A stretch of DNA of 64,000 nt from Christensenellaceae bacterium (GCA_963667795.1 OY764017.1:1460079-1524078), one strand, 5' to 3'; counted from the stretch's first letter, positions 7,028 to 34,006 are shown. Numbers and translations: made by a program. The notes: a model not told the origin generated them from the sequence alone.

Positions 7028-7054
7028 ATCGATAAAGCTTATCGGAGGTGTGCT

Positions 7055-7902: not shown

Positions 7903-7953
7903 ATCGATACAAGTTAACCGATAAAGAATTACTGATTACAAGGAGCATCGATT

Positions 7954-13190: not shown

Positions 13191-14038
13191 GCGAAATTGT
13201 AAAAAAGTTGTACGCATGGTGCTTGGATAAGGTACGATTTGTCGCGGGCGCGATCATCGCATTTTTACCACGGGCTTTGCCGAACAAAAAGAAAAGCGTA
13301 GCGTTTTTGAAGCGAGTGTTTCTAGTACTTGCAATGATACTGCTTATGTGCCCGGTTATTATGCGCGTTGGGGGTAAAGCGGCAACAGGGGGCTTTCCAG
13401 AATTTACTTATACTGGGTCTTATACATTGGTAGATGATGGAGGCGGTGACTGGCGAATTAAGTTTTTGACCAGCGGCACGCTTGTTGTAACGAGCGGTAG
13501 CGTTACAGTCGACGTATTTCTTGTAGGAGGTGGAGCAAGCGGAGCGAAAGGAAACACAGCTGTTTATCGACGCTTGGGCGGAAACGGCGGATTCACATAT
13601 GCTGGCACTTATGTAGTTTCAAAAAATACTTCTTACAATATCATCGTAGGCGCAGGGGGGAACGGAGCATCTGCAGGAGTAGATAGTTCAGTTGGAGGCG
13701 GAACCTCCACTGCATTCGGTTTATCTGCCGCAGGCGGGCAGTCACGTGATCATGGTTCTGCATACGGTGGATCAGGGGGTTCTGGACACGAAGGAACGGC
13801 TGGCTCCAATGGATCGAATGGTACCGGATTATACTATGGTATCGGTCAAGGCACAACAACTCGTGAATTTGCAGAATCGTCAGGGGCGTTATATGCGGCT
13901 GGAGGTGCTGCTGGAGGATCTGTTTCTGGTGCGAGTAATACGGGGAACGGTGGACGTGGTGGCGACAACAATAATTATACTGCTGGATCTGGTGGATCCG
14001 GCATTGTCATCATTCGCAATCATCGCGCGGCGGCATAA
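13187..14038 (+). CDS. glycine-rich domain protein (phage tail-fibre-type Gly-rich domain) with an N-terminal TM segment
   Basis: 283 aa. VFLVGGGASGA..GGNGG..GAGGNG..GGSGGSG..GSGGSGIVIIR pattern; hydrophobic segment VFLVLAMILLMCPVIM. Confidence 0.55.
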   Translation: MSEIVKKLYAWCLDKVRFVAGAIIAFLPRALPNKKKSVAFLKRVFLVLAMILLMCPVIMRVGGKAATGGFPEFTYTGSYTLVDDGGGDWRIKFLTSGTLVVTSGSVTVDVFLVGGGASGAKGNTAVYRRLGGNGGFTYAGTYVVSKNTSYNIIVGAGGNGASAGVDSSVGGGTSTAFGLSAAGGQSRDHGSAYGGSGGSGHEGTAGSNGSNGTGLYYGIGQGTTTREFAESSGALYAAGGAAGGSVSGASNTGNGGRGGDNNNYTAGSGGSGIVIIRNHRAAA

Positions 14039-14296: not shown

Positions 14297-14341
14297 GTGT
14301 GACAAAAGAAGACGGCGGGAAACCGCCGTCTTCTGTGTCAC
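14297..14341. terminator. bidirectional terminator between the cassette and the convergent permease gene
   Basis: GTGTGACAAAAGAAGACGGCGG-gaaa-CCGCCGTCTTCTGTGTCAC long hairpin. Confidence 0.8.
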
Positions 14342-15946: not shown

Positions 15947-18277
15947 CTATTTTTTCTTGTCGCGCAGTGCCTTCAATACGTCGTCAGGCGTAATCGGCAT
16001 CCGGGTGAATCGCATACCGATTGCATTGTACACTGCGTTCGCAATCGCCGGCGCGCCTGGCACCATCAGCGGTTCGCCGACGCCGCGCGCACCATACGGC
16101 CCGGTCGGTTCGGCATGCTCAACATACTTGATGGAGAGTTCAGGAATATCGTCCGCCGTCGGGATTTTGTAATCCATAAAGCTCTTGTTCAGTACACGCC
16201 CGTTCTTCAGCTTGAGTTCCTCAAAAATCGCCGTGCCGAGTGCCTGCACCATCGCGCCTTCCGCCTGTGCACAATACAGCGCAGGATTGACGACCTTGCC
16301 TGCGTCAAAGCAGGAGGACATCTTTAAAACGCGAATGTTGCCTGTTTCGGTATCAACTTCGACCTCTGCCGCGTTGGCGCCCATCGTCCAATACGCCGCC
16401 GGGTGCCCGTTTGCAAGGCCTGTTTTTTTGTCCGTGTTGATGTTGTTTTCCAGCGTAAACGTACCGACGCCGATTGCTGGTCCGCCGTAGCCGGAACCGT
16501 CCGGGAATGATATACCGAGTGCAAACTCAGAAATTGGGTAACGCCGTTCCGGATAGATTTTATGTACGACATAGCCGTCCCGGAATTCAAGGTCACGCTT
16601 GACCGCGCCCATCTTAATTTCGGCAAGGTCGAGCACTTTATCGCGCAAGTCCTCCGCCGCAAGTTTAACGGCGTTGCCCGCGCAGTATGTCGTGCGGCTC
16701 GCAACCGTTTGCCACTCATATGGCGTATATTCCGTGTCGCCGCAGCAGAACGAAATCTTATCCGGCGATACCGAAAGGACTTCCGCAGCGATCTGCGGCA
16801 AAACAGTGGAAACGCCCTGCCCCATCTCCTGTCCGCTGGACATGAGGATGAATGTTCCATCCTCGTTCATGCGGAGAATCGCCGCACTGCCCGCGTTAGT
16901 CGGCATGGACGGTGCCTTCCATCCGCCGGCGATACCCTTTGCGCGGATCTTGGTCGGGCTGCCGGACGGTTTGGAAGGTTTGTCGTACTCTATGTCCTTA
17001 ACAACCTCTTCCAGACACTCCTGAAATCCAGCGATGTCCACTTGCTCATTCATCCCGGTGTGTCCGCCGGGCCGGATACCGTTGATCCTGCGAACCTCCA
17101 GTTCGGAAACGCCGATGGCTTTTGCAACCATATCGATGTTTTGTTCAATGGCAAAATGGATTTCGCACATACCAAACCCACGGTACGGCCCACCGACCGG
17201 ATGGTTCGTATAGACACAATAGCTGTCCGTCCAGACGTTATCGATATCATACGGGCCTGCGGATGCCCATCCGCCCGCTTTGGTGATGTTTACGCCATAC
17301 TCGGTGTATGCACCGCCGTCCCAGACAAAGCGGTTTTGCACACCAAGTATTTTGCCGTCTTTACGGACAGCTGTTTTAATCGTCGCGTGCATGCCCTGAC
17401 GGACATATGCGTTGACAAACTCATCCTCACGCGTGTAGATCAGCTTGACCGGTCGCCCCTGGCAGTGTTTTGCCAACGGGATGACGATGCCTTCCAACGT
17501 GGTCCCGGCTTTGCTGCCGAAACCGCCGCCGACCGCCGGTGAAATGACGCGGATCTTATTGAGCGCAACGCCGAATGCAACAGACAGCGCCTGCCGAACG
17601 GCATATGGTGACTGGCAACTCGACCACACGGTCAGCTTTCCGTCGGCATCGCATTTCGCCATACAGGCGTGCGGTTCGAGCGGTACATGCTGCACGTGCG
17701 GCACATAGAACGAGTGCTCCAGCACCTTGTCCGCCTGCTTGCAGGCTTCCTCAAAATCACCCTTGCGCAAAACATAGTGATGCGAGATATTCGTGCCTTC
17801 TTCCGGCAGGAAGATCGGCGCAATTTTATATTTTGTAAGGTCAGGATGAATAATCGGCGCGTTCGGTTTCATACCTTCCAATGCGTTGGTCACAGCGGGC
17901 AGCTCCTCATATTCTACCTTGATGAGTCTGCAGGCCTCCTCCGCAATTTCCGGCGTTTCCGCTGCGACCGCCGCAACCGCCTCACCCATATATTTTGCCG
18001 TGTCGCCGGGTTTTGCCATGAAGTAACGGTCTTCCAGATACAGGCCCGCACGATTGGGATATTCGTCCCCGCAGATTGCGGCGCGTACGCCCGGAAGTTT
18101 CAGTGCTTCCGACATGTCCACGGAGATAATCTTTGCGTGCGCATACGGGCTGCGAACGCATTGTGCGTACAGCATGCGCTGAAAATGCATGTCGTCTACA
18201 AATTCGAGTGCGCCCGTGACTTTTTTGACCGCGTCGGAGCGTTCAAACGTCTTGCCGACATATTTGAGCTCTTCCAT
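15947..18277 (-). CDS. xanthine dehydrogenase-family molybdopterin-binding large subunit
   Basis: 776 aa. Aldehyde oxidase/xanthine dehydrogenase a/b-hammerhead and Mo-binding domain pattern. The start overlaps the stop of the 2Fe-2S subunit gene. Confidence 0.88.
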
Positions 18278-18762
18278 CAGTTCGCACCTCCTTTGTTCTG
18301 GTTCACAACATCTTCAATCGCCTCGATGATGCGAATGTATCCGGTGCAGCGGCAGAGATTGCCCGCGATTGCGTGCTTGATCTCGTCGCGTGACGGGGCC
18401 GGATTATCGTTGAGCAGCGCGGTCGCGCTCATGATAAAGCCCGGCGTGCAGAAGCCGCACTGCAACGCGGCATGATCGATAAACGCCTTTTGCAGCGGCG
18501 AAAGGTTCCCGTCATGATCAGCTATGCCTTCAATGGTCGTAATATGCATGCCATCCATCTCCGGCGCAAGTACGAGACACGCGTTGAGCGGCTTGCCGTC
18601 CACAATAACCGTGCAGGCGCCGCATTCACCAGCGCCGCAGCCGACTTTCGTGCCGGTCAGGTGCAGCTCGTCCCGGATGACGCTAAGCATGGTACGGTTC
18701 GGCTGAACGTCCAGCTCGTTGAGGTCTTCGTTGATATAGAAACGAACGTGAATTTTTTTCAT
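18277..18762 (-). CDS. (2Fe-2S)-binding small subunit of the molybdoenzyme
   Basis: 161 aa. [12 protein letters not shown] and CRCTGY motifs. Confidence 0.9.
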
Positions 18763-18779: not shown

Positions 18780-19619
18780 TTACCTGAGCGATCTGAGGCT
18801 GTTCTTCACGACGACCTCGACCACATCCAGACGGTAAGCCTTGGAAGCGCGTACGTCGTCGATCGGTGAAACCTCGGTCCGCGCGAGTTTGCCGGCTTCT
18901 TCGATCAGTTGATCGGTCAGATCTTTGCCTTTGACCAGCGCTTCGGTTTTCGGCATACGAACGGGCGTCGGCGCGACCGCACCAAACGCTATGCGATATT
19001 CATCATTGATTTTAACGGCGGTCCCGCAGATGGTCGAAAGATCAACCTCCTTGCGGCGCGCAACTTTTGTGAAAACACCTTTGGCGCCTTCAACATACGG
19101 TACACGGATCGCTGTGACCAGCTCGTCGTCCTTGAGTACGGTTTTACGTACGAATGTGATAAACTCCGCAATCGGGACTTCACGCTTTCCGTCCTTGCTT
19201 TCAAGGCATACGGCTGCATCCATTGCGTAAAGCGGCGTGCCCGTGTCGCAGAGTGGAGATGCGTTGACAATGTTGCCGATACAGGTTGCGCGGTTACGCA
19301 CCTGTGTGCTGCCGATGGATTCGGCGGCATCCGCAAGATACGGATAATATTTTCTTACGCTCTCGTCCTCGGCCAGTCTTGCCACGGTTACGCATGCACC
19401 GATGGTCAGGCCGTTTGTTTTGTCAAATGTGAGCTGGTCAAGCCCCGGGATATGCTTGATGTCAATCACATAATCCGGCGCAATCAGCTTTTCGCGCAGT
19501 TGAATGACGAGATCCGTTCCGCCGTTGAACAATACGGCCGCTTTTCCATACTGCGCACGCAGTTCGGAAGCTTCCGCAATCGTCTTCGGCTGTAGATAAT
19601 CAAACTCCTTCATTTGCAA
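18780..19619 (-). CDS. FAD-binding medium subunit (CoxM/XdhB-like)
   Basis: 279 aa. FAD_binding_5-type N-terminus (FDYLQPKTIAEA..NGGTDL); first gene of the three-subunit set. Confidence 0.85.
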   Translation of the reverse strand: MQMKEFDYLQPKTIAEASELRAQYGKAAVLFNGGTDLVIQLREKLIAPDYVIDIKHIPGLDQLTFDKTNGLTIGACVTVARLAEDESVRKYYPYLADAAESIGSTQVRNRATCIGNIVNASPLCDTGTPLYAMDAAVCLESKDGKREVPIAEFITFVRKTVLKDDELVTAIRVPYVEGAKGVFTKVARRKEVDLSTICGTAVKINDEYRIAFGAVAPTPVRMPKTEALVKGKDLTDQLIEEAGKLARTEVSPIDDVRASKAYRLDVVEVVVKNSLRSLR

Positions 19620-19921: not shown

Positions 19922-20467
19922 TTACATAACGGTGATTTTTTCGCTGCAATCCTTGGAAACGATAGATGGCAAAGTCACGTTTCGAATATGTTTTTGGTTT
20001 TGTAAGTAGTAATGAAAATTGTCCAAGTCTTTTTGAGAAAATGTTGCTTCGGGATGGTTAAGAATCGAAAAGAATGTGTTTGCGGAGTCGAACAACTGAT
20101 TGGTAATAGCGTTATATTTATTTTTTGAAAGGCTTCCGTTGCTTGCGCGGGCTTGAATGTCGTCCCGCAGCAGATACAGATCCCGCATGGCTGCGAGGAC
20201 GGCGTCGTCCACTGGTTTACCCAGAATTTCCCGCATGAGCATGGTTTGCTCCTCAAGCGGTTTCATTCTCAGCAAATCGCCGCCGAGCGCTTCAACATGA
20301 AGGCTCGCCGTGGCGGAGTCGTCCGTCAGCACGCTGTCCGCAAGATCGCAATAGCGCATTGCGAACCGATCGCATGTCGGCATAAGCTTCCATCGCCTGT
20401 AATAGGATATAAGAAAGAACGCTGCCGCTACGACCGCAACCATCAGAATTGCCAGGTATTGATCCAT
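19922..20467 (-). CDS. hypothetical membrane-anchored protein
   Basis: 181 aa. A single N-terminal TM segment (LAILMVAVVAAAFFLISYY) and an AGGAGG RBS. No family recognised. Confidence 0.5.
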   Translation of the reverse strand: MDQYLAILMVAVVAAAFFLISYYRRWKLMPTCDRFAMRYCDLADSVLTDDSATASLHVEALGGDLLRMKPLEEQTMLMREILGKPVDDAVLAAMRDLYLLRDDIQARASNGSLSKNKYNAITNQLFDSANTFFSILNHPEATFSQKDLDNFHYYLQNQKHIRNVTLPSIVSKDCSEKITVM

Positions 20468-20546: not shown

Positions 20547-21347
20547 TTATACATCATCAAAGCCGTCGAATGCAACGACTCTGGAGATGCAGCTTTCGCC
20601 TTCAACCAACTTCCAAGGAAAGATGCCGATGACGCAGCGTTTGTTGGAAAGTTCTTCAATATCTCCGCCAAGGCACTCTGCATGAATCGCTTCATACGGC
20701 TTGCAGAACAGTTCGATATGCATCGCCTGGTAATGATCCGGCCACGGATACACTTCGTCGAGCGTCTTTCCATACTTTTTTTGGAAAATTGCGTCGCACT
20801 TCTTTGCTTCCATGGGTTCCCAGTCACGAATCTTCGTGTTCATCGGATGATCTGCGCTGCCGCAGTCCACGCCGATCCAGCGAATCTTCTTATCGCGTAC
20901 CCACTGAATGAAATCCAGCGACGGGCCGGGATGCCGCAGCATGTAGCGGCGCTCGTCCGCGGTCGGTGAATCCCAACCATAAATATGATAGCCGGTATTG
21001 ATGATAAGAACGTCTCCTTCTTTCACTTCGACGCGTTTTTCAATATCTTCCGGCGTATAAATACCGAAATCTTCCGCCTGATCGGACAGGTCGACAACGA
21101 CGCCGGGCGCACAAAGCTTTGTGAGCTCAAGCGATGCAACGTCGCGTCCTGCGGTGTCGAAGTGCAGCGGGCCGTCGAGATGCGTACCGACATGGTTGGA
21201 GTGCGTCAGCAGCTGCCCGTTCGCACCGTTGGGCGCTAAACGTTTGAAGAATTTCATCTGAAGCGGTTCATACGTCGGCCACGGCGGCGTGCAGATGCCG
21301 ATTGGGATCGTGAGGTCGTACATCTTGATATCAGACCATTTGCTCAT
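20547..21347 (-). CDS. cyclase-family protein (kynurenine formamidase-like metal hydrolase)
   Basis: 266 aa. HSNHVGTHLDGPLHF matches the HxGTHxDxPxH cyclase-family motif. Confidence 0.85.
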   Translation of the reverse strand: MSKWSDIKMYDLTIPIGICTPPWPTYEPLQMKFFKRLAPNGANGQLLTHSNHVGTHLDGPLHFDTAGRDVASLELTKLCAPGVVVDLSDQAEDFGIYTPEDIEKRVEVKEGDVLIINTGYHIYGWDSPTADERRYMLRHPGPSLDFIQWVRDKKIRWIGVDCGSADHPMNTKIRDWEPMEAKKCDAIFQKKYGKTLDEVYPWPDHYQAMHIELFCKPYEAIHAECLGGDIEELSNKRCVIGIFPWKLVEGESCISRVVAFDGFDDV

Positions 21348-21460: not shown

Positions 21461-22885
21461 TTATCCCCAGGCCTGTGCGCAGGCTTCCAGCGCCGTTTTA
21501 AAGCACTCTTCCGGAGGATGTACCAGTCCCGCGCCAACCTGACCCACGCCAGGGTCTTTATGCGCTATCCCGGTGTTGATGATTGGACGGATGCCGGTTT
21601 CGATGACTTTCAGCAAGTCGATGCCCGTCGCGCTTCCACGGAAGTTGAGCGCAGGAATCTTGTATGCCTGGCCCTCGCCGACCGTGATTTCATACATCTT
21701 GGTCGAAAAGTTGATTGCGTCGCTGACCTGCCCGCCGACGAACTGGACGATCGCAGGCGCCGCCGCCATGCAAAAACCGCCGATGCCCGCCGTTTCCGTG
21801 ATGCAGGAGTCTCCGAGGTCGGGCGCTGCGTCTTCTTCGTCATATCCGGGGAAATAAAGGCCTTTGACCAATTCCGCCGGACCGGTGAACCACTTGTCCT
21901 TGCCGAGTCCTGCGATGCGGGTACCGAAGTCCGTGCCGTTGCGGCACATGGTCGCCAGCACCGTGCAATACGGAATATCGAAAATCGGGTCCATCGTGCA
22001 TTTCATTGCCGGCATGGAGATGTTCAGGAACGTATGGTTGTTGCCGTTGATGAAGTTATACGCAGCAACCTTTTGTTCCTGCGGTTTGGAGCAGGACATG
22101 ATCGCGGGAACCAATTCGCGAATCAGCAGCGACGTTCCCGCTTCGTTGCGGTTGTGTCCTTCGTCGCCCATCTGCAACAACTTGGATACAAGAACCTTGA
22201 CGTCGATCTCTTTTTTGATCTCCATGGCTTCCTTCAGCACTGGATAGAGTTCCTTCTCCATCCAGCTCAGGCGGTCGAGCACCTCGTTGTCGCAAGCCCC
22301 AAAGCGGAGCACTTTACCGAGACCTTCGTTGACCGTGCAATACGCGCGGTTTCCAAACGCTTTGTTCTCCATGATCCAAACCGGCATGCTGTATGTAACC
22401 ACGCCCGCCATCGGCCCGACAGCATCGTGCATGTGGCAGGGCTCAAACTTGATTTCGCCACTGGCGGCAAGTTTTTCCGCCTCTTCCAAATCGTTCGCAA
22501 GGCCTTCGTAGATAAGTCCGCCCATAACGGCGCCGCGCTGCGGCCCACACATGCGTTCCCATGTGACCGGCGGGCCTGCGTGTAAAATCGTCTTCTTCGT
22601 CATGCCGGGGATGGTGTCGCCCGCGATGCCGAGGCCGATCAATGTCGGCTGTGCAGCGAGGATGCGGCGGAGCGCTTCCTGATTTGCTTCTGCAATCTTC
22701 TGCGCCAGTTCCGGCTTTTTCAACTTACGCAGATTGCCCGCGGCAACCTTGTCGCCGCCCGCAATCGGTTTCCAGTCTACATGCACGGCGGCTTCCTTCT
22801 GGCTGATCAGGTCGTCGTAAAACGACTCTATACCGAAGTTGACAACGTGCAGTTTCTTTCCGAATAATTCGTTTAATTTACTCAT
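21461..22885 (-). CDS. DUF1116 protein (E. coli YlbE/AllG-like)
   Basis: The ORF runs to 22915. ATG 22885 (MSKLNELFGKK) has an AAGGAGG RBS inside the end of fdrA. The overall sequence resembles YlbE (by eye). Confidence 0.75.
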   Translation of the reverse strand: MSKLNELFGKKLHVVNFGIESFYDDLISQKEAAVHVDWKPIAGGDKVAAGNLRKLKKPELAQKIAEANQEALRRILAAQPTLIGLGIAGDTIPGMTKKTILHAGPPVTWERMCGPQRGAVMGGLIYEGLANDLEEAEKLAASGEIKFEPCHMHDAVGPMAGVVTYSMPVWIMENKAFGNRAYCTVNEGLGKVLRFGACDNEVLDRLSWMEKELYPVLKEAMEIKKEIDVKVLVSKLLQMGDEGHNRNEAGTSLLIRELVPAIMSCSKPQEQKVAAYNFINGNNHTFLNISMPAMKCTMDPIFDIPYCTVLATMCRNGTDFGTRIAGLGKDKWFTGPAELVKGLYFPGYDEEDAAPDLGDSCITETAGIGGFCMAAAPAIVQFVGGQVSDAINFSTKMYEITVGEGQAYKIPALNFRGSATGIDLLKVIETGIRPIINTGIAHKDPGVGQVGAGLVHPPEECFKTALEACAQAWG

Positions 22886-22898
22886 CGCCGTGCCCTCC

Positions 22899-24461
22899 TT
22901 ACTGTAAGTTGGCAAGCACGCGCTGAACGAACCGCGTTGCCTGCGCGTTGCTCGGCAGCACGACCGCGCCCGCTTCTTCCAGCTGCTTCTGTGTTTTGCT
23001 CAGACACTGCGGGTCGCCTTCCGTGCCGCAGACCGCACAAACGCAGCAAAGGTGCCTTCCCTGCTTTTCCGCTTCGGCTTTGGCTTCTTTAATTGCCGCC
23101 GCAAGGTCTTCCGCAGGATTCGGATGCGAGCCGTAGCCGATGACACAATCCGTCATGATCACCGCACACTCTGGGTCTTTGCCGTCCACAATCACGCGTT
23201 CGGCGCGCAGGCTCGGGTCAATCATCGGGTGCGGGCGGCCGACAGTAAATTCGTCGTCACCAAAGTCGAGGAATGTGTGCTCCCGGCTCTTGCCGCCCTT
23301 TGCATCGGGTAATTTGTCCTCCGTGTGCAGCGGAATATTGCTATAAATATGCTCAAGACTGCTGATCATGAGCTTCATGGCTTCGTCGCAAAGCGTGCCG
23401 CCGGTATAGAATCCGCGCACATACTTCTGTCCTTTTGCCATCTTGCCCGCAATCTCTTTTGCAAGCGCATCCGCCTTATCGTCACCCATCGTGAACTCGA
23501 CGAAGTCCGCAACCGGCTTCCCTTTGCTGATTGCGACGGCTTTGTGCGCCGCGTCCTCCAGCGAAACCGCAGCCGTCAGCCCAAAGGACTCGATTTCCTT
23601 GCGATCCCCGCCAATAAAGTTAACGACGACCGGCTTGCCTGCCTTAGCGGCGATACCAAGAATCTCGGTCGCAATCTCTTTGGCCGGGGGTTTGCTGATG
23701 AGCACGATCACCTTCGTCTTCGGATCATTGATCAGTGCGTCAAGGCCAAGTTTCATCATAAGACCGCCGATTTCCTTCTTCAGATCGCGACCGCCAGTGC
23801 CAAGCACCTGACTGACCCCGCCGCCAAGCTGGTCGACGATGCTGGAAACTTCCTGCGTGCCCGTGCCGGATGCGGCGACGATGCCGATGTTACCGGACGC
23901 AACCACGTTTGCAAACGCAAGGGGCACATTATTGACAATCGCCGTTCCACAGTCCGGTCCCATCATAAGCAATTCGCGCTCATATGCATATTGCTTGAGC
24001 GCGCGCTCTTCGTCGATGGTCACATTGTCTGAGAACAGCATAACGTTGATACCGTTGTCGAGGCAGCTCTGCGCAACATCCGCGGCAAACTTGCCGGGAA
24101 CGGAGATGACCGCCATGTTCAGCTCGGGATCGATCTTAATCGCGCCCTCGAGCGTCGGCGGCATATACGCAGCAGCTTTGGATTCCGTCTTTTTATTGAG
24201 CAGCTGCTCAACCGTGTTCATCACCTCGTCGAACACCGCTTCGTCGGCGCATTCCACGGCGACAAAGAAGTCGTTTGCGCCAACTTGCTCGTTGAACTCC
24301 GGCGTAGCAACGCCGATGTTGTGCGCGATCTCAATGTTGAGGTCCGTGCCCATGCCGACCAGCGCTTCGCTCACGCCGTCGAGTTTTTTGAGTTCTTTGG
24401 AGATGAGCATGAGGGTTACGGAATCATAATAGGCATTTTTTCTGATTTCCAGTTGAACCAC
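22899..24461 (-). CDS. fdrA: FdrA-family acyl-CoA synthetase-like protein (AllF-like; succinyl-CoA-synthetase-alpha fold)
   Basis: 520 aa. The N-terminus KNAYYDSVTLMLISKELKKL is typical of FdrA; CoA-binding/ligase-type GxG-rich segments are present. Confidence 0.8.
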   Translation of the reverse strand: MVQLEIRKNAYYDSVTLMLISKELKKLDGVSEALVGMGTDLNIEIAHNIGVATPEFNEQVGANDFFVAVECADEAVFDEVMNTVEQLLNKKTESKAAAYMPPTLEGAIKIDPELNMAVISVPGKFAADVAQSCLDNGINVMLFSDNVTIDEERALKQYAYERELLMMGPDCGTAIVNNVPLAFANVVASGNIGIVAASGTGTQEVSSIVDQLGGGVSQVLGTGGRDLKKEIGGLMMKLGLDALINDPKTKVIVLISKPPAKEIATEILGIAAKAGKPVVVNFIGGDRKEIESFGLTAAVSLEDAAHKAVAISKGKPVADFVEFTMGDDKADALAKEIAGKMAKGQKYVRGFYTGGTLCDEAMKLMISSLEHIYSNIPLHTEDKLPDAKGGKSREHTFLDFGDDEFTVGRPHPMIDPSLRAERVIVDGKDPECAVIMTDCVIGYGSHPNPAEDLAAAIKEAKAEAEKQGRHLCCVCAVCGTEGDPQCLSKTQKQLEEAGAVVLPSNAQATRFVQRVLANLQ

Positions 24462-24463: not shown

Positions 24464-25357
24464 TTATTTCCCTCCATCATGATGTGCTATGGCGAGTATC
24501 AGTCCTGTGAGTATGTCGCCACCGGATGTCGAACCGATCGACATCACGCGCGCCGCCGCCCGCCGGACTGTCTCGTCGTCCGCGTTGGAAAATACGGAAC
24601 TAATCAGCGTGAGGACGGCGTCATTGGCAAGTCCTTCGCCGCTTTGCCGCAAAAACGCAGCGCTGACGCGTGTCGTTCTTTCCGCCGCACGCTTTGCCAT
24701 TTGGGACAGGAGCGTATCCTTCCCTTGTTTGTTCTGTACACGCCATAAAACGCGTAGCATCGTAAAGTATCCCGTCAGCAAATCGTCCGACGACGGTGTC
24801 AGCCCAACGCCGCAGCCCGCCATGCGTCCGGCGACATGCAACGCACGCGCTTCGTCGCCGAAGGAGATTGCGTTCGTCAGCTCCAACAATCGCGGTTTTA
24901 AAAATTCACTGTAGACATTCCCACCGTTGCCCGTTGCCAGTGCGGAAATACCGAATTCAGCATCCGCATTTCCGAGTGCGTCCCGTAAAATCGGAAGTCT
25001 GTCTGCCACCGATCGCCGCATAACGGCGATTGTGTCCACACTCAGGTCTTTTCGCCCGGAACCGGAAAAATCAATTTCGATTCCGGCTCCGGAAATTTTG
25101 ACTCTTCCATCCGCAATCGTCGCTTCCATGCCGTTGCAGATGCCGAACCACGTCAGCAAAACGTCTGTCCGCAGGGACACGGCATACGGCGTTAAAGGTC
25201 TGTCGTCTTTTATCAGTCCGATCAGTCCGTCGTTCCCGTTTGGCGCAATGTTAACCGCATGGTCAAACACGGAATGTACCGTGCCGCCGATCGGTTCCCG
25301 CTTTGCCATGTACGCGAGTCGACTGCAGATCGCGACCGCCTGGATTGATTGCTTCAT
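24464..25357 (-). CDS. DUF2877 protein (YlbF/AllH-like)
   Basis: 297 aa, 2 nt upstream of fdrA. The sequence pattern (SVFDHAVNI.., GxGxTPSxDD) resembles the DUF2877 family. Confidence 0.65.
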   Translation of the reverse strand: MKQSIQAVAICSRLAYMAKREPIGGTVHSVFDHAVNIAPNGNDGLIGLIKDDRPLTPYAVSLRTDVLLTWFGICNGMEATIADGRVKISGAGIEIDFSGSGRKDLSVDTIAVMRRSVADRLPILRDALGNADAEFGISALATGNGGNVYSEFLKPRLLELTNAISFGDEARALHVAGRMAGCGVGLTPSSDDLLTGYFTMLRVLWRVQNKQGKDTLLSQMAKRAAERTTRVSAAFLRQSGEGLANDAVLTLISSVFSNADDETVRRAAARVMSIGSTSGGDILTGLILAIAHHDGGK

Positions 25358-25394
25358 GAGCGCTTTGTCAATTCAAAAACATCTTTCAGAAGGC

Positions 25395-25760
25395 TTAAGC
25401 CTTCTGAAAGATGAATCCATATTCCTTGGAATCAATGGTTTCTTTATAGAGGATGCGGCGCGTGCGAACGACACCAACAGTCGCGACAAGTTCCATGCCG
25501 CTTTCAATGCCGTCGTCAAAGCCGATCTGCCCGGTCGCGCGGACACCGTTTTCAAACTCGACAATGCCGAAGTTCAACCACGGGCACATATAGCCTTCCG
25601 GCAGGTTGTATACGCGCGTCCAAGTCAACAGTTTGCACTTGCCTTCCAGCGGGATTTCTTCAAACTCGCGACCGTCACAGTCTGGATTCTGGCAGACGAT
25701 GTAGCGAGGATGATGCAGTTTGCCGCATTTTTTGCACTTGTATGCGTACATTTGTTCCAT
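25395..25760 (-). CDS. DUF35 Zn-ribbon/OB-fold protein
   Basis: 121 aa. CKKCGK..CQNPDC zinc ribbon followed by an OB-like region. It lies directly downstream of the thiolase-like gene, as in known thiolase/DUF35 pairs. Confidence 0.85.
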   Translation of the reverse strand: MEQMYAYKCKKCGKLHHPRYIVCQNPDCDGREFEEIPLEGKCKLLTWTRVYNLPEGYMCPWLNFGIVEFENGVRATGQIGFDDGIESGMELVATVGVVRTRRILYKETIDSKEYGFIFQKA

Positions 25761-25773
25761 TTCATTCTCCTCC

Positions 25774-26970
25774 TTACTTCGTGGTCAGAATCGTGGAAAC
25801 GACGTTGTTGCCGAATCCGCCGAAGTTCACGGCCAGGCCGGTTTTTGCGCCTTCCACTTGACGGTCGGTCGCTTCACCGCGGAGCTGCTTGACCAGCTCG
25901 ACAATCTGCGAAACACCCGTTGCGCCCAGTGGATGGCCCTTTGCCTTCAGCCCGCCGGATGTGTTGACCGGTATCTTTCCGCCGATTTGCGTGTCGCCTC
26001 TGCGCACGGCAAGATGTCCTTCACCGCGCGGGAAGAACCCGACTTCCTCAGCTTCCTCGATCTCGAGGATTTGGAATGCGTCGTGCAGTTCAGCCACATC
26101 GATATCGTCCGGACCCATGCCCGCCATCTCATACGCTTTCTGTGCGCTCATGCGGACGGCCAATAGATCGGTCGGCACCTCGCGGTTGGCAACAACGTGC
26201 GTGTCAGTCGCGGATGCGATGCCCGCAACACGAACGAACTTCTTCTCGCCAAAGCCGAACTCTTCCTGCTTATCCTTGGCAACGAGCAACACAGCGGCCG
26301 CGCCGTCGGAAACGGGGCACATATCAAACTGCCGCAACGGATCAGCCACGAGCGGGTTGGTCGCGTTGATATAGGCCGGGTTCGTGATGCGCTCCAGCAC
26401 TACCTTACGCTGGATATGTGAAACCGGATTGTGGCACGCGTTCTCATGGTTCTTGACGGCGACGATTGCAAGGTCCTTGCTCTCCACGCCGAATTTATCC
26501 ATGCAAAGGCGGGTGAACAGTCCCGCAAACGACGGGAGCGTACAACCGTATTTATACTCTGCATCGGGATGCAGCATAGTCGCAACAAAATCCGTGCCTT
26601 CCCATCCACTGACCGCGCGCATGCCTTCACCGCCGATGACCAGCACACAGTCGCTCATGCCGGAGGCAATCGCCATCACACCGAGCTTGACCGCGGAAGC
26701 ACCGGACGCCGGTCCGTTTTCAACGGTTTCCGCACCGGCCGGTCGAATATTCAACGCATCCACAACCGCGCTGGCAGCGCCGCTGATACGGCTGACCATA
26801 CCGGAACCCATCGATCCGACAAACACCTGATCGATAACGTTCCTGCGTCCCGTTTTGGCGCCTGCATCGTCCATTGCCTGAAGCGCCGCCTCGCAAAGCA
26901 TATCAAGGAACGGAACGGTGGACTTTCCGAACTTGGTATGGCCGACGCCAACGATTCCTACTTGTCTCAT
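25774..26970 (-). CDS. thiolase-fold (SCP2-type) protein that apparently lacks the canonical catalytic cysteines
   Basis: 398 aa. NTSGGLKAKGHPLGATG is retained. However, VENGPASGAS sits where thiolases carry ..C-A-S-G.., and ELHDAF sits where SCP2-type thiolases carry HDCF (alignment by eye). Confidence 0.8.
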   Translation of the reverse strand: MRQVGIVGVGHTKFGKSTVPFLDMLCEAALQAMDDAGAKTGRRNVIDQVFVGSMGSGMVSRISGAASAVVDALNIRPAGAETVENGPASGASAVKLGVMAIASGMSDCVLVIGGEGMRAVSGWEGTDFVATMLHPDAEYKYGCTLPSFAGLFTRLCMDKFGVESKDLAIVAVKNHENACHNPVSHIQRKVVLERITNPAYINATNPLVADPLRQFDMCPVSDGAAAVLLVAKDKQEEFGFGEKKFVRVAGIASATDTHVVANREVPTDLLAVRMSAQKAYEMAGMGPDDIDVAELHDAFQILEIEEAEEVGFFPRGEGHLAVRRGDTQIGGKIPVNTSGGLKAKGHPLGATGVSQIVELVKQLRGEATDRQVEGAKTGLAVNFGGFGNNVVSTILTTK

Positions 26971-26999
26971 TTCCCTTTTCCTTTCTTCCGTGTAACGAA

Positions 27000-27671
27000 T
27001 TAAACCTTAATCTGGGCAGGCATACGCGCGATTTTATTCGCCTCGATAACGTCTTCAAAAGCAGGACGGATACCGACGTTTTTGTTCGCCTTATGTTTCT
27101 CCCAGAGTGCGCGCGTCAAAACGAAAGTAGGCACGCCGCCGAGTTCATGCGGGGACTGCGGACGGGATTCGAGTTCATACTCGATCATCCAGCGTTTGAA
27201 TCCGTTCGGGCTCTCCGCGACGATCCAAACTTCGTCCTGATTCATAAAGTCAAAATGATATTCCATCTTGGCGGCAAACAATTGCGCGCCGACGCGTGCA
27301 CCACGCTTGAGCGTCATGGTGTGGTAGCTCATGCCGACTTTTTCGTTGACCATGCGGCCGTTCACGATGCCGGCGACTTCGCCGTCAACCAAGCCCAGGA
27401 ACAGGTATTCGTCCTGTACGCGGTAGCGCAGCATCCCGAGCAGCTCCGCAACGATACGAGCGGAAACGATGTCGTAAAAATCTTTTTCGTGGTCAAGCAG
27501 AACCTTGATACCATTCATGACCATTTCCGTTTCTTCACGGGTCGCTTCACGAACGAGCATGTCTTCGCCGGTCGTCAGCGGAATAACTTTTGGTTCGTAG
27601 GGTTTTAACCCGATTGTCGGTGGCCGAAGCGTAGCTTCCATTTCGTCTACGGAGATATCATACTTGCTCAT
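27000..27671 (-). CDS. hypothetical protein, GNAT-like acyltransferase fold suspected
   Basis: 223 aa, first gene of the operon. The segment GLVDGEVAGIVNG..LKRGARVGAQLF resembles GNAT motif A. Weak assignment. Confidence 0.45.
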   Translation of the reverse strand: MSKYDISVDEMEATLRPPTIGLKPYEPKVIPLTTGEDMLVREATREETEMVMNGIKVLLDHEKDFYDIVSARIVAELLGMLRYRVQDEYLFLGLVDGEVAGIVNGRMVNEKVGMSYHTMTLKRGARVGAQLFAAKMEYHFDFMNQDEVWIVAESPNGFKRWMIEYELESRPQSPHELGGVPTFVLTRALWEKHKANKNVGIRPAFEDVIEANKIARMPAQIKV

Positions 27672-28098
27672 ATTGTGTGCCTCCTTTATTGATATGAAGA
27701 GATGTGATAGGATATCGCCTTCATCCGGCGACTACAGCTCTATTGTAGCGTCTAAATGAAGCCTTGTCTAGTATTTCTTGCAAAAATTTTATTTTCAGAT
27801 AAAAACACCTTTCGTTCTTTGATGATTGCTTATTTTCCATCCTTATTTTATTGTTATTCAATAAATATATATCTTTTTGCCCACTAAACAAGGCTTTATA
27901 GCGTTTGCGGCGACGCATTTTGTCCTGCACGCGCATAGATCATATCAATTTTCAATTGCGTTTTTTCGTATGTTCTAGTTATTTATTTAACACTGTGTTT
28001 ATTATTAATGCATATTTTTGTGTACAATCCTGCATTTTGAGTATTGAAATTTCTTTGGGTAGCATTTGAGTTTTATCTGCTGGCGTAGTATACTATTT

Positions 28099-28128
28099 TT
28101 GGTAAATATGTTTCAAAATAGCTATAAT
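28099..28128 (+). promoter_or_regulatory. candidate pfkA promoter
   Basis: TTGGTA, 18-nt spacer, TATAAT (28123-28128), 27 nt upstream of the start codon region. Confidence 0.45.
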
Positions 28129-28154
28129 ATCCATCAGAAAGGATTTTTAAACCT

Positions 28155-30476: not shown

Positions 30477-32243
30477 TTAGTACACCACACGATAAACAGT
30501 ATAGTTTACATCGATTACGTCTATTGCTTCCAGTCCGCTCGCGCCGTTGTGCTTTTTTAGATAGCGCAGCAACACCTGCAGATCGCTTGCTTCCGCATTG
30601 CCGAGCAAAAGCACATTATCCTGTCGGAACATATTCATCGTAAACGACTCGATCCCGTTTTGCTCGATTTGCAGCGTTTTCCAGCCGGAATACATGCCCG
30701 TGTCGCCCCAGTCGATCAGATTTGTCGGCTTCTCATCCGGATACACTTTGAACGCTTCATAGTTTTTTAATGACCACGGCGCATAGAGATATGCGTTTTC
30801 CGAATGCTCCATAACATATGTTTCCACACCGCGCACGTTCGCATTCAATTCCGATGGATCATATGTCCCAAGCCAGAGCCAACTTTTCGCCACGCTCCAG
30901 CCAAGCGCAGTCACGCTCAGCGCGATCAAGCCCATACGTAATATCTTTTTCAGTGCACGTTTTTTGCGCGGTGAATTTTCCGCGCGAATGCGCAGTGCAA
31001 GCGGCACACACGACGCCGCCATCGGGATTGCAATCACCTGAAACGAACGTACGATCAGCCGCTCTTTGATGCACAGAAAGAAGCAAAGCACAAATGCGCC
31101 AAATGCAAGGCCCAGGACGATCAACGCGTCCACAGTACGTTTCCTCCCCCGAAAAAACCAGACGAGCGACCAGAGCACCAGCAAGACCGGAAAAACCAGC
31201 ATATATTCCGCCGTGCCATTGCCGCGAAAGAACGTTTCCCCATAAGCAAGCGCACCTAAAAGTTGCTCCGAAACTCTTGGTTGCTCCGTTTGCGTGTGTT
31301 CGACAATCGCGTTCAATGCATCCGCCGTCACCTGATCGTCCAGATAGCACGACCACTCGACAAGATCGTAAGTCTCCTCATCCCAGCCAATCGTTGTAAA
31401 AAACGCAGGGTCTTCTTCGTAACGCACGTGCGGAAAATCCATATACTGCCCGCGCGCACTTTCAAACGCAGCGTATTCCGGCGGGTTCAGATTCGTATTC
31501 GCCCAGCCGTTGAGCAAAACCAGCGCAAGGAACAGCACCACGCCGGACAGGGCATATCCGCCCAATCGAAGGGTTGTCTTCTTCTTGTCCGGTTTTTGCA
31601 GATAAATCACATCGTTGAGCGCATGGTAAACGACCGCCGCCACCCAAAAACAAGCCAGCGAGTAGCCGGTTGAGTTTCGAAACAGAAAGCACAATGCCAT
31701 CAAAACGAGGCTTGAAACATACACGCCGCGCATACGCTTTGGTTTAATTTCATAGCGCGTGTCTGTCGAAAGCAGCCGTACGACACCTGCCGTACCGAGC
31801 AAACAGGCCGTCATTGTAAAGGAAAGACGCGCGACGGCATAGACGAATACCGTTGCATACAACAGCACGCTTGCGCTAAGCGCAAACAGCGGCTGTCGAC
31901 CTTCTCCAAGAATGGAAAAAAAGATCACCCAGAGCGAAACGCTGACCGCCAGCAGCTGAAGCACCGGCCACCATGGGATACCGGGAGTGATCGTGTATAA
32001 AAAGCTCGTTAGATAACCCAGCGGCAGGCTGATAAACCCATGTATAGGATAAGGATTGCCCGTAAAGTAACCCGCAAGTGTGTACATGATGTTTGTGTCG
32101 TCGTTGGTTAAAAATGTAACCGGAAACAGCGTCGCCGTCAGGCCGACCAGCACCAGCGTCAGGAGTGCGCTCACCAACATCCTGCCGGATTTTGTTTTGC
32201 ATATGCGTGTAATCAATCCAATTTTGTTGGAATTTTCGCTCAT
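30477..32243 (-). CDS. polytopic membrane protein, GT-C-like glycosyltransferase candidate (paralog 2)
   Basis: 588 aa with more than 10 TM segments. It has an early-loop FLTNDD motif and a C-terminal soluble domain with YPDEKPTNLIDWG and MFRQDNV, both shared with the upstream paralog. Confidence 0.55.
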   Translation of the reverse strand: MSENSNKIGLITRICKTKSGRMLVSALLTLVLVGLTATLFPVTFLTNDDTNIMYTLAGYFTGNPYPIHGFISLPLGYLTSFLYTITPGIPWWPVLQLLAVSVSLWVIFFSILGEGRQPLFALSASVLLYATVFVYAVARLSFTMTACLLGTAGVVRLLSTDTRYEIKPKRMRGVYVSSLVLMALCFLFRNSTGYSLACFWVAAVVYHALNDVIYLQKPDKKKTTLRLGGYALSGVVLFLALVLLNGWANTNLNPPEYAAFESARGQYMDFPHVRYEEDPAFFTTIGWDEETYDLVEWSCYLDDQVTADALNAIVEHTQTEQPRVSEQLLGALAYGETFFRGNGTAEYMLVFPVLLVLWSLVWFFRGRKRTVDALIVLGLAFGAFVLCFFLCIKERLIVRSFQVIAIPMAASCVPLALRIRAENSPRKKRALKKILRMGLIALSVTALGWSVAKSWLWLGTYDPSELNANVRGVETYVMEHSENAYLYAPWSLKNYEAFKVYPDEKPTNLIDWGDTGMYSGWKTLQIEQNGIESFTMNMFRQDNVLLLGNAEASDLQVLLRYLKKHNGASGLEAIDVIDVNYTVYRVVY

Positions 32244-34006
32244 GAATCCGCCTCGAACGCAAATTGAATCACAACGATATTGTCAATGATTGTTGCAACG
32301 GTGTCATATCCCGTTGCGCCGCATGTTTCCATCATGTATTCTGCAAACAGCTCAACATACCGGTCGCTTAAATCTCCAATGTAATAGACATTGTCCTGCC
32401 GGAACATGTCGGCTGCACAGGTGCTGCTGAGTTTGTTGACAGTGAGTTGTGCTTCCCTTGTGGCAGTGTTCATGTCACATCCGCCCCAGTCCATCAGGTT
32501 TGTCGGCTTTTCATCCGGGTAAACGCTCAGCGCATCCACATTGTTTGCGGCATAGACGTCCCGGACGTATACATTCTCCGGATGGTCGAGCGCATATGCA
32601 ACGACCGCCTGTGAGTTTGCCAGCATATCGTCCGACTCATAACTCATCACGGTGCGGAACACTTTGTAGCCAAAACCGAGCGATAGAACTACAGCGACCC
32701 CTACGATCAGTACACGAACGATGCGCGTTGCCGGTTTCTCGCTTGTCTGCTCCGCCGATTGGTATAGCGCCAGCGCACAAAGCCAGATTGCGACCGCTGC
32801 GGGAATGCAAACCGACATCCAAACGCGCAGATTGATCCGTCCCGCATAACAAAGGTATGCAATCAATACGCCTGTGCCGACCAAAAAGGCACTGCCAGCC
32901 GCAAACGCAAGCGCCCGCTTTCGGTTGAATAAAAACAATCCCAGCGCCGCCAGCCAGCTTGCGGCGACGATACCGCCGATGTAAACTGCCAGCGGATATG
33001 CACCGAGGAACGTCTTTAACACACTCAGCCCGTTCGAAATACGCTCTCCAATGCCCATTTGCATAAATTGAGAGCCCTGCACAATGGTGTTGAACGCCTC
33101 CGTCGTAACCCGTTCGTCCATGTAAAACCAACTGCCGACCAGCGCGTTAAGCGTTCCGTCCCAGCCGACGGACTCATACAACTCCGGGTTTTCACCGTAA
33201 CTGTCGTGTGGATAGTCCATAAACGAGGCGCGCGCTTCGTCATAGGCGGTAAATCCTTTCGGATTCTGTGCGCTGCGACCGATCGCGTTGACACCGGCCA
33301 GCACGACCGTGACCGCCGTCGCAGCCGCCAGATAGCGAAGCATACGTTTCGTCAAAGCCCGCCCGCCGTTCATTCCTGCTTCCACGGCGCGGTAAACCAA
33401 TGCGCCGCCGACAAAGCACGCCGCCGCAATGCCGGACGAATTGCGCACAAGCATGCTGCCCGCGAGCAAAACAACAGCAAACGTCAGATATCTGCGTTGT
33501 ATCTTTGGCGGGTCTTTTGAATCTACCGCAAGAGCCAACGCCACCGCACCGGAACCGATCACACCGGAGCTGATCGTAAACGTCACCAATACGATTCCGT
33601 AAAAATACAATCCTGCGCCGAGAGCCACGATCAACCCGATTACGAGCAACAATGGAACATTGTTGCGATGGCCGCTTTTCAACAAGGCCGCAAACACGGC
33701 AGACATGCCGAGAAGAACCGCAAACAGCTGCACAAGCAGCCACCACGGCAATTGCGGAATAATCGTATACAGTCCGCTGACGATAAACGCCATGATGCAG
33801 TTGATAAACGGATGTCCAAAAGACGGCATGCCACTGCGATATCCCGCAAGCGCCCAAGCAACGTTGAGATCGTCATTATCAAAGAATGTGATCGTCCGCG
33901 TTGCCGCCGCAAATACAATCAAAGCCAGCGCAGCGAAAAACGCAAAGCACCAGCGGAATCGTTCACTTCCATATCCTTTTTGAATCAGTACGCCAAGTTT
34001 TTTCAT
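32240..34006 (-). CDS. polytopic membrane protein, GT-C-like glycosyltransferase candidate (paralog 1)
   Basis: 588 aa, the same length and architecture as its neighbour (FFDNDD, YPDEKPTNLMDWG, MFRQDNV). 4-nt overlap with the paralog. Confidence 0.55.
   Translation of the reverse strand: MKKLGVLIQKGYGSERFRWCFAFFAALALIVFAAATRTITFFDNDDLNVAWALAGYRSGMPSFGHPFINCIMAFIVSGLYTIIPQLPWWLLVQLFAVLLGMSAVFAALLKSGHRNNVPLLLVIGLIVALGAGLYFYGIVLVTFTISSGVIGSGAVALALAVDSKDPPKIQRRYLTFAVVLLAGSMLVRNSSGIAAACFVGGALVYRAVEAGMNGGRALTKRMLRYLAAATAVTVVLAGVNAIGRSAQNPKGFTAYDEARASFMDYPHDSYGENPELYESVGWDGTLNALVGSWFYMDERVTTEAFNTIVQGSQFMQMGIGERISNGLSVLKTFLGAYPLAVYIGGIVAASWLAALGLFLFNRKRALAFAAGSAFLVGTGVLIAYLCYAGRINLRVWMSVCIPAAVAIWLCALALYQSAEQTSEKPATRIVRVLIVGVAVVLSLGFGYKVFRTVMSYESDDMLANSQAVVAYALDHPENVYVRDVYAANNVDALSVYPDEKPTNLMDWGGCDMNTATREAQLTVNKLSSTCAADMFRQDNVYYIGDLSDRYVELFAEYMMETCGATGYDTVATIIDNIVVIQFAFEADS

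Follow-up and report, generated by a model that had tools for sequence, protein, structure and literature searches.

A conserved GNAT-fold, proline-type thiolase-fold and DUF35 triad in a putative ureide-catabolic gene cluster of anaerobic bacteria

The archaeal complexes of HMG-CoA synthase (HMGS), ACAT and DUF35, together with the bacterial derivatives PhlACB (PpATase) and SmaATase (MucABC), serve mevalonate or antibiotic biosynthesis and follow a common plan, in which an archaeal-type ACAT-fold subunit is encoded beside a stand-alone DUF35 protein and a third, co-transcribed subunit. The related DUF35 complexes hold three subunits around fused CoA sites, and some of them pair an unfavourable step with a favourable one (PMC6392133, PMC12960953). 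Thiolase folds without the nucleophilic cysteine are also already known in the company of DUF35, since Ltp2-ChsH2(DUF35) and Sal-Shy(DUF35), like TbSLP, are Cys-less SCP2-type folds that act on CoA thioesters without an acyl-enzyme. A further system already described is AllFGH (FdrA-YlbE-YlbF) of E. coli, characterised in 2024 as an oxamate carbamoyltransferase that converts oxalurate and inorganic phosphate to oxamate and carbamoyl phosphate, and whose genes share an operon with that of carbamate kinase (PMC11326118). Here we describe a locus in which relatives of these systems lie together. A stretch of 64,000 nucleotides from a Christensenellaceae bacterium (GCA_963667795.1, OY764017.1:1460079-1524078; hereafter the window) carries a triad of genes for a divergent GNAT-fold protein (U223), a thiolase-fold protein with proline in place of the nucleophilic cysteine, and a DUF35 protein, and the triad is most likely a conserved part of a cluster for the catabolism of ureides or N-heterocycles in which carbamoyl phosphate is made.

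The thiolase-fold protein matches the Pfam models Thiolase_C_1 (1.1e-45) and Thiolase_N (7.1e-25), and in a phmmer search of the PDB it aligns with thiolases from end to end, 7YVY scoring 8.5e-76 over residues 1-395 and 6ESQ 3.9e-60. In these alignments the segment VENGPASG faces the IEAACASG and VEAACASG of 7YVY and 6ESQ, which puts Pro87 at the position of the nucleophilic cysteine. The same register emerges from an independent MAFFT alignment that includes 60 representatives of 50%-identity clusters, the column of Pro87 being occupied by C in 31 sequences, S in 12, P in 11, D in 2 and G in 1. A sequence-only reading of the window had claimed the loss of this cysteine from a by-eye alignment, and both alignments bear it out, with proline rather than cysteine at the nucleophile position. 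Across 78 homologues (from 80 genome loci, 56-95% identity) the segments ENGPASG, AELHDAF, KGHPxGATG and NFGGFGNN are invariant or nearly so, in agreement with the same reading's statement that the GHPLGATG region is kept, and Pro87 is itself invariant across these homologues from several phyla, whose hosts include Clostridia, Coriobacteriales, Spirochaetes, Eisenbacteria, Acidobacteriota and Caldiserica. An AlphaFold2 (AF2) model of the protein, built on an alignment of 29 sequences that are 86-95% identical, reached a predicted local distance difference test score (pLDDT) of 41 and was unusable; the fold was therefore assigned from sequence homology to solved thiolases.

With Pro87 in place of the cysteine, an acyl-Cys intermediate, and with it acyl-enzyme ping-pong chemistry, would be impossible. 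Proline at the nucleophile position also removes a backbone NH of the thioester oxyanion hole. Although Cys218 (CPVSDGAAA) and Ser89 are both invariant and might be thought to let the protein act as a thiolase with an alternative nucleophile, we consider this extremely improbable, since the Cys of C-(S/P)-x-(S/T)-DGAAA is found equally in ordinary Cys-nucleophile relatives, and is thus not compensating, and Ser89 is the normal third residue of CxS. We know of no thiolase that uses such an alternative nucleophile.

The second motif requires a different interpretation from that first given to it. ELHDAF faces the EVHDCF of 6ESQ, and the alanine had been read as a second meaningful loss of cysteine; the alanine is real, but 7YVY and five other Cys-bearing relatives share HDAF. 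The motif of archaeal-type ACATs is HDxF, with a histidine shown in PfACAT to be essential (PMC12960953). Because Cys-bearing thiolases carry HDAF and the motif is HDxF, the alanine is not diagnostic of a second loss. Both His296 (of HDAF) and His346 (of GHP) are retained and are invariant among the homologues. In thiolases the HDxF and GHx histidines polarise the thioester and stabilise its enolate.

These residues also bear on the analogy, drawn in the sequence-only reading, with the retro-aldolase Ltp2 (like Sal, a steroid side-chain aldolase), which would make the protein an enzyme cleaving a beta-hydroxyacyl-CoA. It shares with them a Cys-less SCP2-type thiolase fold and a DUF35 partner, and Ltp2 (6OK1) is a detectable homologue at 4.1e-28. 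However, retro-aldol cleavage by Ltp2 and Sal needs a tyrosine at the first position of the motif and a second tyrosine or a cysteine (PMC12329534), and the catalytic tyrosine of YDHF in Ltp2 and YDCY in Sal is His296 here, while Cys304 of Sal is Ala298 (PMC12329534); the register follows from HDAF facing the HDCF of SCP2 thiolases, which that paper equates with YDHF and YDCY. The motif tyrosine is likewise common to Ltp2, Sal and TbSLP (YDHF, YDCY, YDCF), and the second catalytic residue is absent from the window protein, His346 standing at +50 from the motif against Tyr344 of Ltp2, an equivalence drawn from spacing alone. In addition, DUF35 is a domain of a MaoC hydratase in ChsH2 and Shy and a separate protein here, the cluster contains no MaoC hydratase or acyl-CoA dehydrogenase, and the closest solved relatives are archaeal ACATs, Ltp2 being much more distant than 7YVY. 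An Ltp2-type aldolase is therefore very unlikely, and this reading was rejected for the absence of its catalytic residues.

Among Cys-less proteins the closest relatives are ST0096 and other ACAT-like proteins of archaea and bacteria. ST0096 is a thiolase-like protein of Sulfolobus tokodaii with a solved structure (4YZO, 4.8e-65; PMC6392133). Proteins of this type share with the window protein an HDxF motif in which x is not Cys, a THPxxE-like segment and a GGFGN(N/S) C-terminal loop, but carry Ser or Gly where the window protein has Pro87 and stand in different gene contexts. In the set formed by the window protein and its nearest 50%-identity cluster representatives, 25 of the 56 sequences covering the nucleophile column, ST0096 among them, lack the cysteine; Cys-less relatives are thus common, and loss of the cysteine is not by itself novel.

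The Pro-type proteins nevertheless form a sharply separated clade, with their own representative at 430 bits and 54% identity to the window protein and the next at 311 bits and at most 47%. No curated NCBIfam thiolase cut-off is reached, PRK06064 coming closest (372.8 against 420 bits) and AcCoTHIOL_METTL scoring 307.9 against 600, and the protein also falls short of the BbsB equivalog level (177.9 bits against 750). Across phyla it remains 56-60% identical, a conservation equal to that of any enzyme of the cluster, and the loops ENGPASG, HDAF, NTSGGLKAKGHP and NFGGFGNN rank among its best-conserved segments. This strict conservation argues for a working active site. A thiolase-fold protein with the same ENGPASG, 45% identical to that of the window, occurs in a methanogen-like archaeal clade (L162, 8001-9131; L163, 7563-8693), where the gene stands alone beside a trp operon, followed at most by a tiny open reading frame (ORF), with no GNAT or AllFGH. 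That context (P0242 and P0424, the nearest outgroup) is uninformative for function, and the shared motif may reflect either an independent Cys-to-Pro change or an old lineage.

The two partner proteins are less easily recognised by sequence models. U223 has no Pfam or NCBIfam match, and among its homologues 7 of 35 give sub-threshold matches to Acetyltransf_1 and nothing stronger, the best E-value being 0.026. Its AF2 model, in contrast to that of the thiolase-fold protein, is confident (pLDDT 89.5; predicted template modelling score, pTM, 0.88), and the 50 top matches listed by Foldseek against the PDB are all GNAT-fold acyl-CoA N-acyltransferases with probability 1.0, at E-values of about 1e-7 to 1e-5, TM-scores of about 0.41-0.56 and 9-17% identity. 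The model thus gives U223 a GNAT fold and supports the earlier description of the leading 223-residue protein as GNAT-like, at the level of the fold. None of the 2383 members of the family has a Pfam domain, and one variant, named from Flavonifractor, lies on 739 contigs. Invariant in the family are Ser115-x-His117-Thr118, in strand beta4, just ahead of an R-G-x-R-x-G-A loop, a region where GNATs usually have their acyl-CoA site. The loop of U223 itself, R-G-A-R-V-G-A, is at most an approximate match to the canonical Q/R-x-x-G-x-G/A acyl-CoA loop. The DUF35 protein matches Pfam zf-ChsH2 above the cut-off (25.5 bits against 23.2; 1.2e-5) and, weakly, NCBIfam BbsA (1.1e-10 over residues 5-101, which include the OB region; 41.7 bits against a cut-off of 250), and Cys9, Cys12, Cys23 and Cys28 are readable in its sequence.

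Linkage was counted in 59 loci that extend at least 8 kb to either side of the thiolase-like gene, the loci having been sampled conditional on bait genes. DUF35 is present in all 59 and U223 in 58, accompanied by the cyclase-family gene in 55, AllG in 54, AllF in 47 (with AllF-AllG fusions in addition), AllH in 44, the FeS subunit of a molybdenum hydroxylase in 42 and a permease in 30, so that the block of genes noticed in the window does co-occur elsewhere. DUF35 follows the thiolase-like gene directly in every one of the 59 loci, as it had been described for the window. Within the triad the median gap is 18.5 nt at the first junction and 9.5 nt at the second, between the thiolase-like gene and DUF35; the genes overlap at 28 of 118 junctions of the former kind and at 14 of 122 of the latter. 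When U223 served as bait in a metagenome collection and loci of 9 kb or more were considered, the thiolase-like gene and DUF35 adjoined it in all but two cases, in both of which the contig stops just after U223. The triad genes are near-obligately linked.

The order of the genes around the triad changes from lineage to lineage (Clostridia, Coriobacteriales, Spirochaetes, Eisenbacteria and Acidobacteriota): Clostridium, for instance, has AllHFG-cyclase-triad-Xdh-permease, some Bacillota have divergent halves, and in Sphaerochaeta AllFG is fused. With an order so variable, the linkage is more likely to be functional than merely inherited. A scan that took one genome per species found confirmed relatives of the thiolase-like protein in at least 465 species-level genomes. 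A PucR-type regulator is present at 27 loci, and when the unassigned ORFs of the loci were clustered all against all, most proved to be antisense artefacts and the PucR-type regulator was the sole recurrent real family to stand out. The 181-aa orphan encoded in the window is present in 17 of the 59 loci and is poorly conserved (24-65% identity).

A few loci depart from the usual composition. The thiolase-like gene and DUF35 are kept where the GNAT is swapped or missing (L045, L065, L053, L064), and in two of these (L045, 8889-11397; L065, 9035-12071) a FabD/MdcH-like acyltransferase, with 246-248 bits against the fabD model and thus just below its cut-off of 261, replaces the GNAT and is followed by the Pro-type thiolase-like gene, whose product is 67-71% identical to that of the window, and then by DUF35. 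This variant operon runs divergently from nadA. L065 has, in addition, a small canonical GNAT after DUF35, and nadB and nadC were also identified there. In a metagenome-assembled genome of Coriobacteriales (L047, 9313-16379) the triad occurs without AllFGH, cyclase or hydroxylase and is followed by a sodium:solute symporter, a CN-hydrolase (nitrilase/amidase family) and a PucR regulator.

Next to the triad in the window lie three adjacent subunits of the FdrA, DUF1116 and DUF2877 families. The sequence-only reading had listed these three families as part of a combination it did not recognise; their presence was confirmed by Pfam, as was that of the cyclase-family hydrolase, but the combination is not without a functional handle, DUF1116 and DUF2877 now being named AllG and AllH in Pfam and the three together corresponding to the E. 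coli oxamate carbamoyltransferase (PMC11326118). Identity to the E. coli proteins is 37% for the AllF-like subunit (FdrA), 43% for the AllG-like subunit (YlbE) and 29% for the AllH-like subunit (YlbF, over 114 aa). In 13 of 160 related loci the cluster includes a carbamate kinase gene, at varying positions (cyclase-CK-U223, DUF35-CK-Xdh and permease-CK, where CK is carbamate kinase), whose product exceeds the arcC equivalog cut-off of 358 bits with scores of 394 and 374. The AllFGH homology and this bona fide kinase within the cluster provide good evidence, by analogy with the E. coli system, that the pathway would free a ureido group as carbamoyl phosphate.

The likeness to E. coli AllFGH and AllK thus extends over a three-subunit FdrA/DUF1116/DUF2877 enzyme and a setting of anaerobic ureide catabolism, with carbamate kinase linked in the 13 related loci though not in the window. 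It does not extend to the allantoin and oxalurate genes, no homologues of allB, allC, allD or allE being found among the conserved cluster neighbours, and the subunits here form a distinct, separately conserved subfamily in which the boundary between AllF and AllG has shifted. The N-terminal part of the AllG-like protein (about 50 residues, approximately 15-65) matches the C-terminal tail of the FdrA model, and in the spirochaete Sphaerochaeta and related loci (L073, L078, ~5200-8350) the two subunits are fused into a protein of ~1030 aa. The start codon of the AllG-like gene in the window is uncertain, being either TTG at 22915 or an ATG 30 nt downstream; should it be the TTG, the AllF and AllG ORFs would share 17 nt.

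The remaining conserved genes bear on the substrate. The cyclase-family protein is the most conserved of the cluster (59-96% identity), has kynurenine formamidase and isatin hydrolase as its closest solved relatives, and shows in translation H-V-G-T-H-L-D-G-P-L-H, which we take, from the HxGTHxDxPxH of kynurenine formamidase, to be the family's metal motif; it is a candidate for the ring-opening enzyme. The hydroxylase is harder to place, its FAD subunit falling under the XdhB equivalog cut-offs and its molybdenum cofactor (MoCo) subunit under all NCBIfam equivalog cut-offs, with the alpha subunit of 4-hydroxybenzoyl-CoA reductase as best PDB match (2.6e-97). Against specific models the NCS2 permease scores 274 bits as uracil permease, 251 as RutG and 212 as xanthine permease, in each case under the model's own cut-off. 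Taken together, the nucleobase permease, the hydroxylase, the ring amidohydrolase and an enzyme whose single characterised homologue has an N-acylurea as substrate suggest that the pathway starts from a ureido heterocycle, which would first be oxidised and then undergo ring opening to an acylurea. Barbiturate would yield such an N-acylurea on ring opening, namely ureidomalonate, the CH2 homologue of oxalurate. By this chemical analogy, together with the permease scores and the PucR-type regulators, a pyrimidine or barbiturate is a possible, though doubtful, substrate of the pathway.

As an overall explanation, to which we would give somewhat less than an even chance, the triad may form the carbon-processing end of a conserved anaerobic pathway for ureido N-heterocycles. 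The permease would import the base, and the molybdenum hydroxylase, where present, would oxidise it, the preferred case being uracil to barbiturate; the cyclase-family hydrolase would then open the ring to an N-acylurea (ureidomalonate), from which the AllFGH-like enzyme would release the ureido group by phosphorolysis as carbamoyl phosphate, with ATP being gained through carbamate kinase. What remains after release of carbamoyl phosphate would be an amide or malonyl C3 unit (malonamate), and the triad would convert this amide/acid remnant to acetyl-CoA, CO2 and NH3. The logic resembles that of the aerobic oxidative pyrimidine pathway of actinobacteria, in which oxidation by a molybdenum hydroxylase is followed by hydrolytic ring opening to an N-acylurea and loss of the urea-derived part, so that a malonyl unit is left; the enzymes of that pathway are uracil dehydrogenase, barbiturase and ureidomalonase. 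On the assignments proposed here, each step beyond the oxidation would fall to other enzyme families: a cyclase fold would take the place of the Toblerone-fold barbiturase, and phosphorolysis to carbamoyl phosphate that of hydrolysis to urea.

Within this scheme the three proteins would form a complex bridged by DUF35, in the manner of HMGS/ACAT/DUF35. The GNAT subunit would move an acyl group on to or off CoA, the favoured direction being the loading of the remnant on to CoA, and the Cys-less thiolase-fold subunit would act on the thioester by enolate chemistry without thiolysis. The likeliest reaction would be decarboxylation of a malonyl-type thioester to acetyl-CoA, which would pull the unfavourable amide-to-thioester step. 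Replacement of the GNAT by a FabD/MdcH-like malonyl transferase in L045 and L065 hints that the acyl group is malonyl. Cys-to-Gln ketosynthases (KSQ/CLF), the GNAT-fold malonyl-CoA decarboxylase and the GNAT_L of CurA are established malonyl-thioester decarboxylases. Among Cys-less SCP2-thiolase-like proteins, TbSLP slowly decarboxylates malonyl-CoA (cited in PMC12329534). A decarboxylase-type role for the thiolase-fold subunit, built on these analogies, may be entertained but is still more unlikely than likely.

In comparison with the complexes on which this scheme is modelled, HDxF and GHP are kept here as in HMGS/ACAT/DUF35 and its derivatives, and the derivatives also provide precedent for one degenerate subunit and for channelling between unfavourable and favourable steps. 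The third subunit, however, has an HMGS/KAS-III fold in those systems and a GNAT fold here, no HMGS-like gene being found in the loci examined. It is also a different subunit that is degenerate, as PhlC, MucB and archaeal ACAT keep their cysteine and the ACAT-like subunit here has lost it (CxS to PxS), and the gene context is a catabolic ureide cluster rather than a biosynthetic one.

Several points weigh against the explanation we prefer. To our knowledge there is no precedent for amide-to-thioester transfer by a GNAT. The complex is proposed from gene linkage and analogy alone, and every step of the pathway from the genes. There is no carbamate kinase anywhere in the 64-kb window. The AllFGH-like proteins are 37-43% identical to E. 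coli AllFG, against ~37-61% among themselves across phyla, and with such a distance their substrate may differ. The molybdenum hydroxylase genes are missing at the same syntenic locus in close relatives (L004, L006, L008-L011, L013, L018), which keep the cyclase, the 181-aa orphan, the permease and a BppU_N/glycine-rich pair (window 12258-14038). The hydroxylase is thus a presence/absence polymorphism at a single locus; oxidation would then not be obligatory there, and a dispensable hydroxylase is a poor fit to uracil-to-barbiturate unless another hydroxylase serves. Finally, related complexes include degenerate, purely structural subunits, PhlA and MucA, which lack catalytic residues (PMC6392133, PMC12960953).

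This last point underlies the main rival to a decarboxylating complex, in which the thiolase-fold protein is a dead scaffold or CoA-binding platform that, together with DUF35, holds the GNAT, and the GNAT does all the chemistry, for example by transferring an acyl group between CoA and the urea, ammonia or amine that ring opening sets free. PhlACB and SmaATase offer a parallel, as their HMGS-like subunit, devoid of its catalytic residues, is structural and yet all three subunits are required (PMC6392133, PMC12960953). U223 is conserved as strictly as the thiolase-like protein and has many invariant polar residues, and the change of the nucleophile to proline, with its cost to the oxyanion hole, would also suit a dead subunit. 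A scaffold would nevertheless be expected to relax in its former active-site loops, which are instead among the best-conserved segments of a protein that changes little across phyla, and four loci retain the thiolase-like gene and DUF35 where the GNAT is swapped or missing. We therefore consider the scaffold rather unlikely.

The identity of the substrate is open to a rival of its own, in which the heterocycle is another ureide, either xanthine (giving 4-ureidoimidazole-5-carboxylate) or a ring of the hydantoin or parabanate type (giving oxalurate and then oxamate), and the triad handles what remains by decarboxylating an aminoimidazole carboxylate or converting oxamate. The dispensable hydroxylase would suit a hub substrate such as xanthine, reached from several purines, and the PucR-type regulator, the NCS2 permeases of other loci (29-46% identical to that of the window) and the proven substrate of the E. 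coli homologue, oxalurate (PMC11326118), point the same way. A purine, however, would leave an imidazole needing several more enzymes, which are absent from every locus examined; oxalurate-forming genes such as allD are missing from the cluster; and the permease of the window scores best as the uracil/RutG type. The clostridial xanthinase pathway reportedly uses other enzyme families (Tong et al., 2023). The enzymes of the reductive uric-acid pathway are also unrelated to the cluster (PMC12507026). On balance another ureide seems an unlikely but serious candidate.

The most far-reaching form of the pyrimidine scheme would be an anaerobic, energy-conserving oxidative fermentation, with a molybdenum uracil/thymine dehydrogenase, a cyclase-fold 'barbiturase', AllFGH-type phosphorolysis of ureidomalonate, and a triad that channels malonamate to acetyl-CoA by coupling the uphill amide-to-thioester transfer to decarboxylation of malonyl-CoA. 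Taken as a whole this is speculative and improbable. We know of no gene assigned to a uracil/thymine dehydrogenase activity.

A literature search of incomplete coverage found no description of the GNAT/PxS-thiolase-fold/DUF35 triad, of its AllFGH-cyclase-hydroxylase-permease setting or of the implied pathway, in keeping with the earlier reading, which could match the combination of genes to no described pathway. The cluster occurs in hundreds of anaerobes, with Flavonifractor of the human gut, Christensenellaceae and Oscillospiraceae among its hosts, and the triad proteins are now annotated as 'acetyl-CoA acetyltransferase', 'hypothetical' or 'OB-fold protein'. We regard this as systematic mis-annotation, as Pro-type proteins, by the residues described above, could not be acetyl-CoA acetyltransferases. 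Working out the cluster would define a new anaerobic route of N-heterocycle, possibly pyrimidine, turnover in gut and sediment communities, and would give the AllFGH carbamoyltransferase class a second physiological role and a new substrate. It would also extend the DUF35-bridged thiolase complexes, which attract interest for C-C bond biocatalysis, by a third architecture that combines a GNAT partner and a Cys-less ACAT.

In the window the minus-strand genes form an uninterrupted run from U223 through the NCS2 permease (27671 down to 14377), bordered by a divergent pfkA upstream and a terminator-like hairpin downstream (Table 1). The operon first proposed, extending through the cyclase-family gene, is therefore present but incomplete, as the run continues into the three-subunit molybdenum hydroxylase and the permease. 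A riboswitch search upstream of the operon (27672-28154) gave none at gathering score and noise alone at E-values up to 10.

Table 1. Features of the cluster, in window coordinates (MoCo, molybdenum cofactor).
Feature	Coordinates	Strand	Basis
U223, divergent GNAT-fold protein, 223 aa, first gene of the triad	27000-27671	-	AF2 and Foldseek; no family match
Thiolase-fold protein, archaeal/SCP2-type, 398 aa, Pro87 for nucleophilic Cys	25774-26970	-	Pfam, phmmer against PDB, MAFFT
DUF35 protein, 121 aa, C4 zinc ribbon and OB region	25395-25760	-	Pfam zf-ChsH2, NCBIfam BbsA
15-bp perfect hairpin, then T-run (TTTTT)	25380-25413	-	consensus scan
AllH-like (DUF2877) subunit	24464-25357	-	Pfam AllH 1.1e-24 (87.6 bits)
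AllF/FdrA-like subunit, succinyl-CoA-synthetase-alpha-like	22899-24461	-	NCBIfam FdrA 482.3 bits (cut-off 433)
AllG-like (DUF1116) subunit	21461-22915	-	Pfam AllG 8.3e-92 (307 bits)
Cyclase-family (PF04199) metal-dependent amidohydrolase	20547-21347	-	Pfam Cyclase 2.4e-34 (119 bits)
181-aa orphan with hydrophobic N-terminus	19922-20467	-	no Pfam or NCBIfam match
Molybdenum hydroxylase FAD subunit	18780-19619	-	Pfam FAD_binding_5 and CO_deh_flav_C
Molybdenum hydroxylase [2Fe-2S] subunit	18277-18762	-	Pfam Fer2_2 and Fer2
Molybdenum hydroxylase MoCo subunit, xanthine-dehydrogenase family	15947-18277	-	Pfam MoCoBD_1/2
NCS2 nucleobase:cation symporter	14377-15678	-	TIGR00801 316 bits (cut-off 291.8)
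Terminator-like hairpin after permease gene, cluster end	14311-14327	-	consensus scan

The perfect hairpin at the end of the triad overlaps the stop codon of the DUF35 gene and lies 22 nt ahead of the AllH-like start; it is possibly an internal terminator or attenuator, which would decouple expression of the triad from that of the rest of the cluster. The sole Rfam match in the window is a pemK RNA motif (RF02913; 48075-48152, minus strand; 54.5 bits against a gathering score of 34.8), which is unrelated to the cluster.

Elsewhere in the window, two tandem ORFs of 588 aa, rich in hydrophobic segments, lie on the minus strand (30477-34006) beside a region with a glycosyltransferase-type gene; the first has no Pfam match, that search having covered the first ORF of the pair, and the two are possibly related to the cell envelope. 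On the plus strand (9275-12098), the gene of a 554-aa [FeFe]-hydrogenase-like protein that has a PAS domain stands directly before that of a SpoIIE-type phosphatase (388 aa), an arrangement that looks like a signalling pair for sensing redox state or H2. Clostridium magnum has a comparable hydrogenase-like sensor (L039, 1714-3648), which is fused to an MCP signalling domain and encoded just upstream of the cluster.

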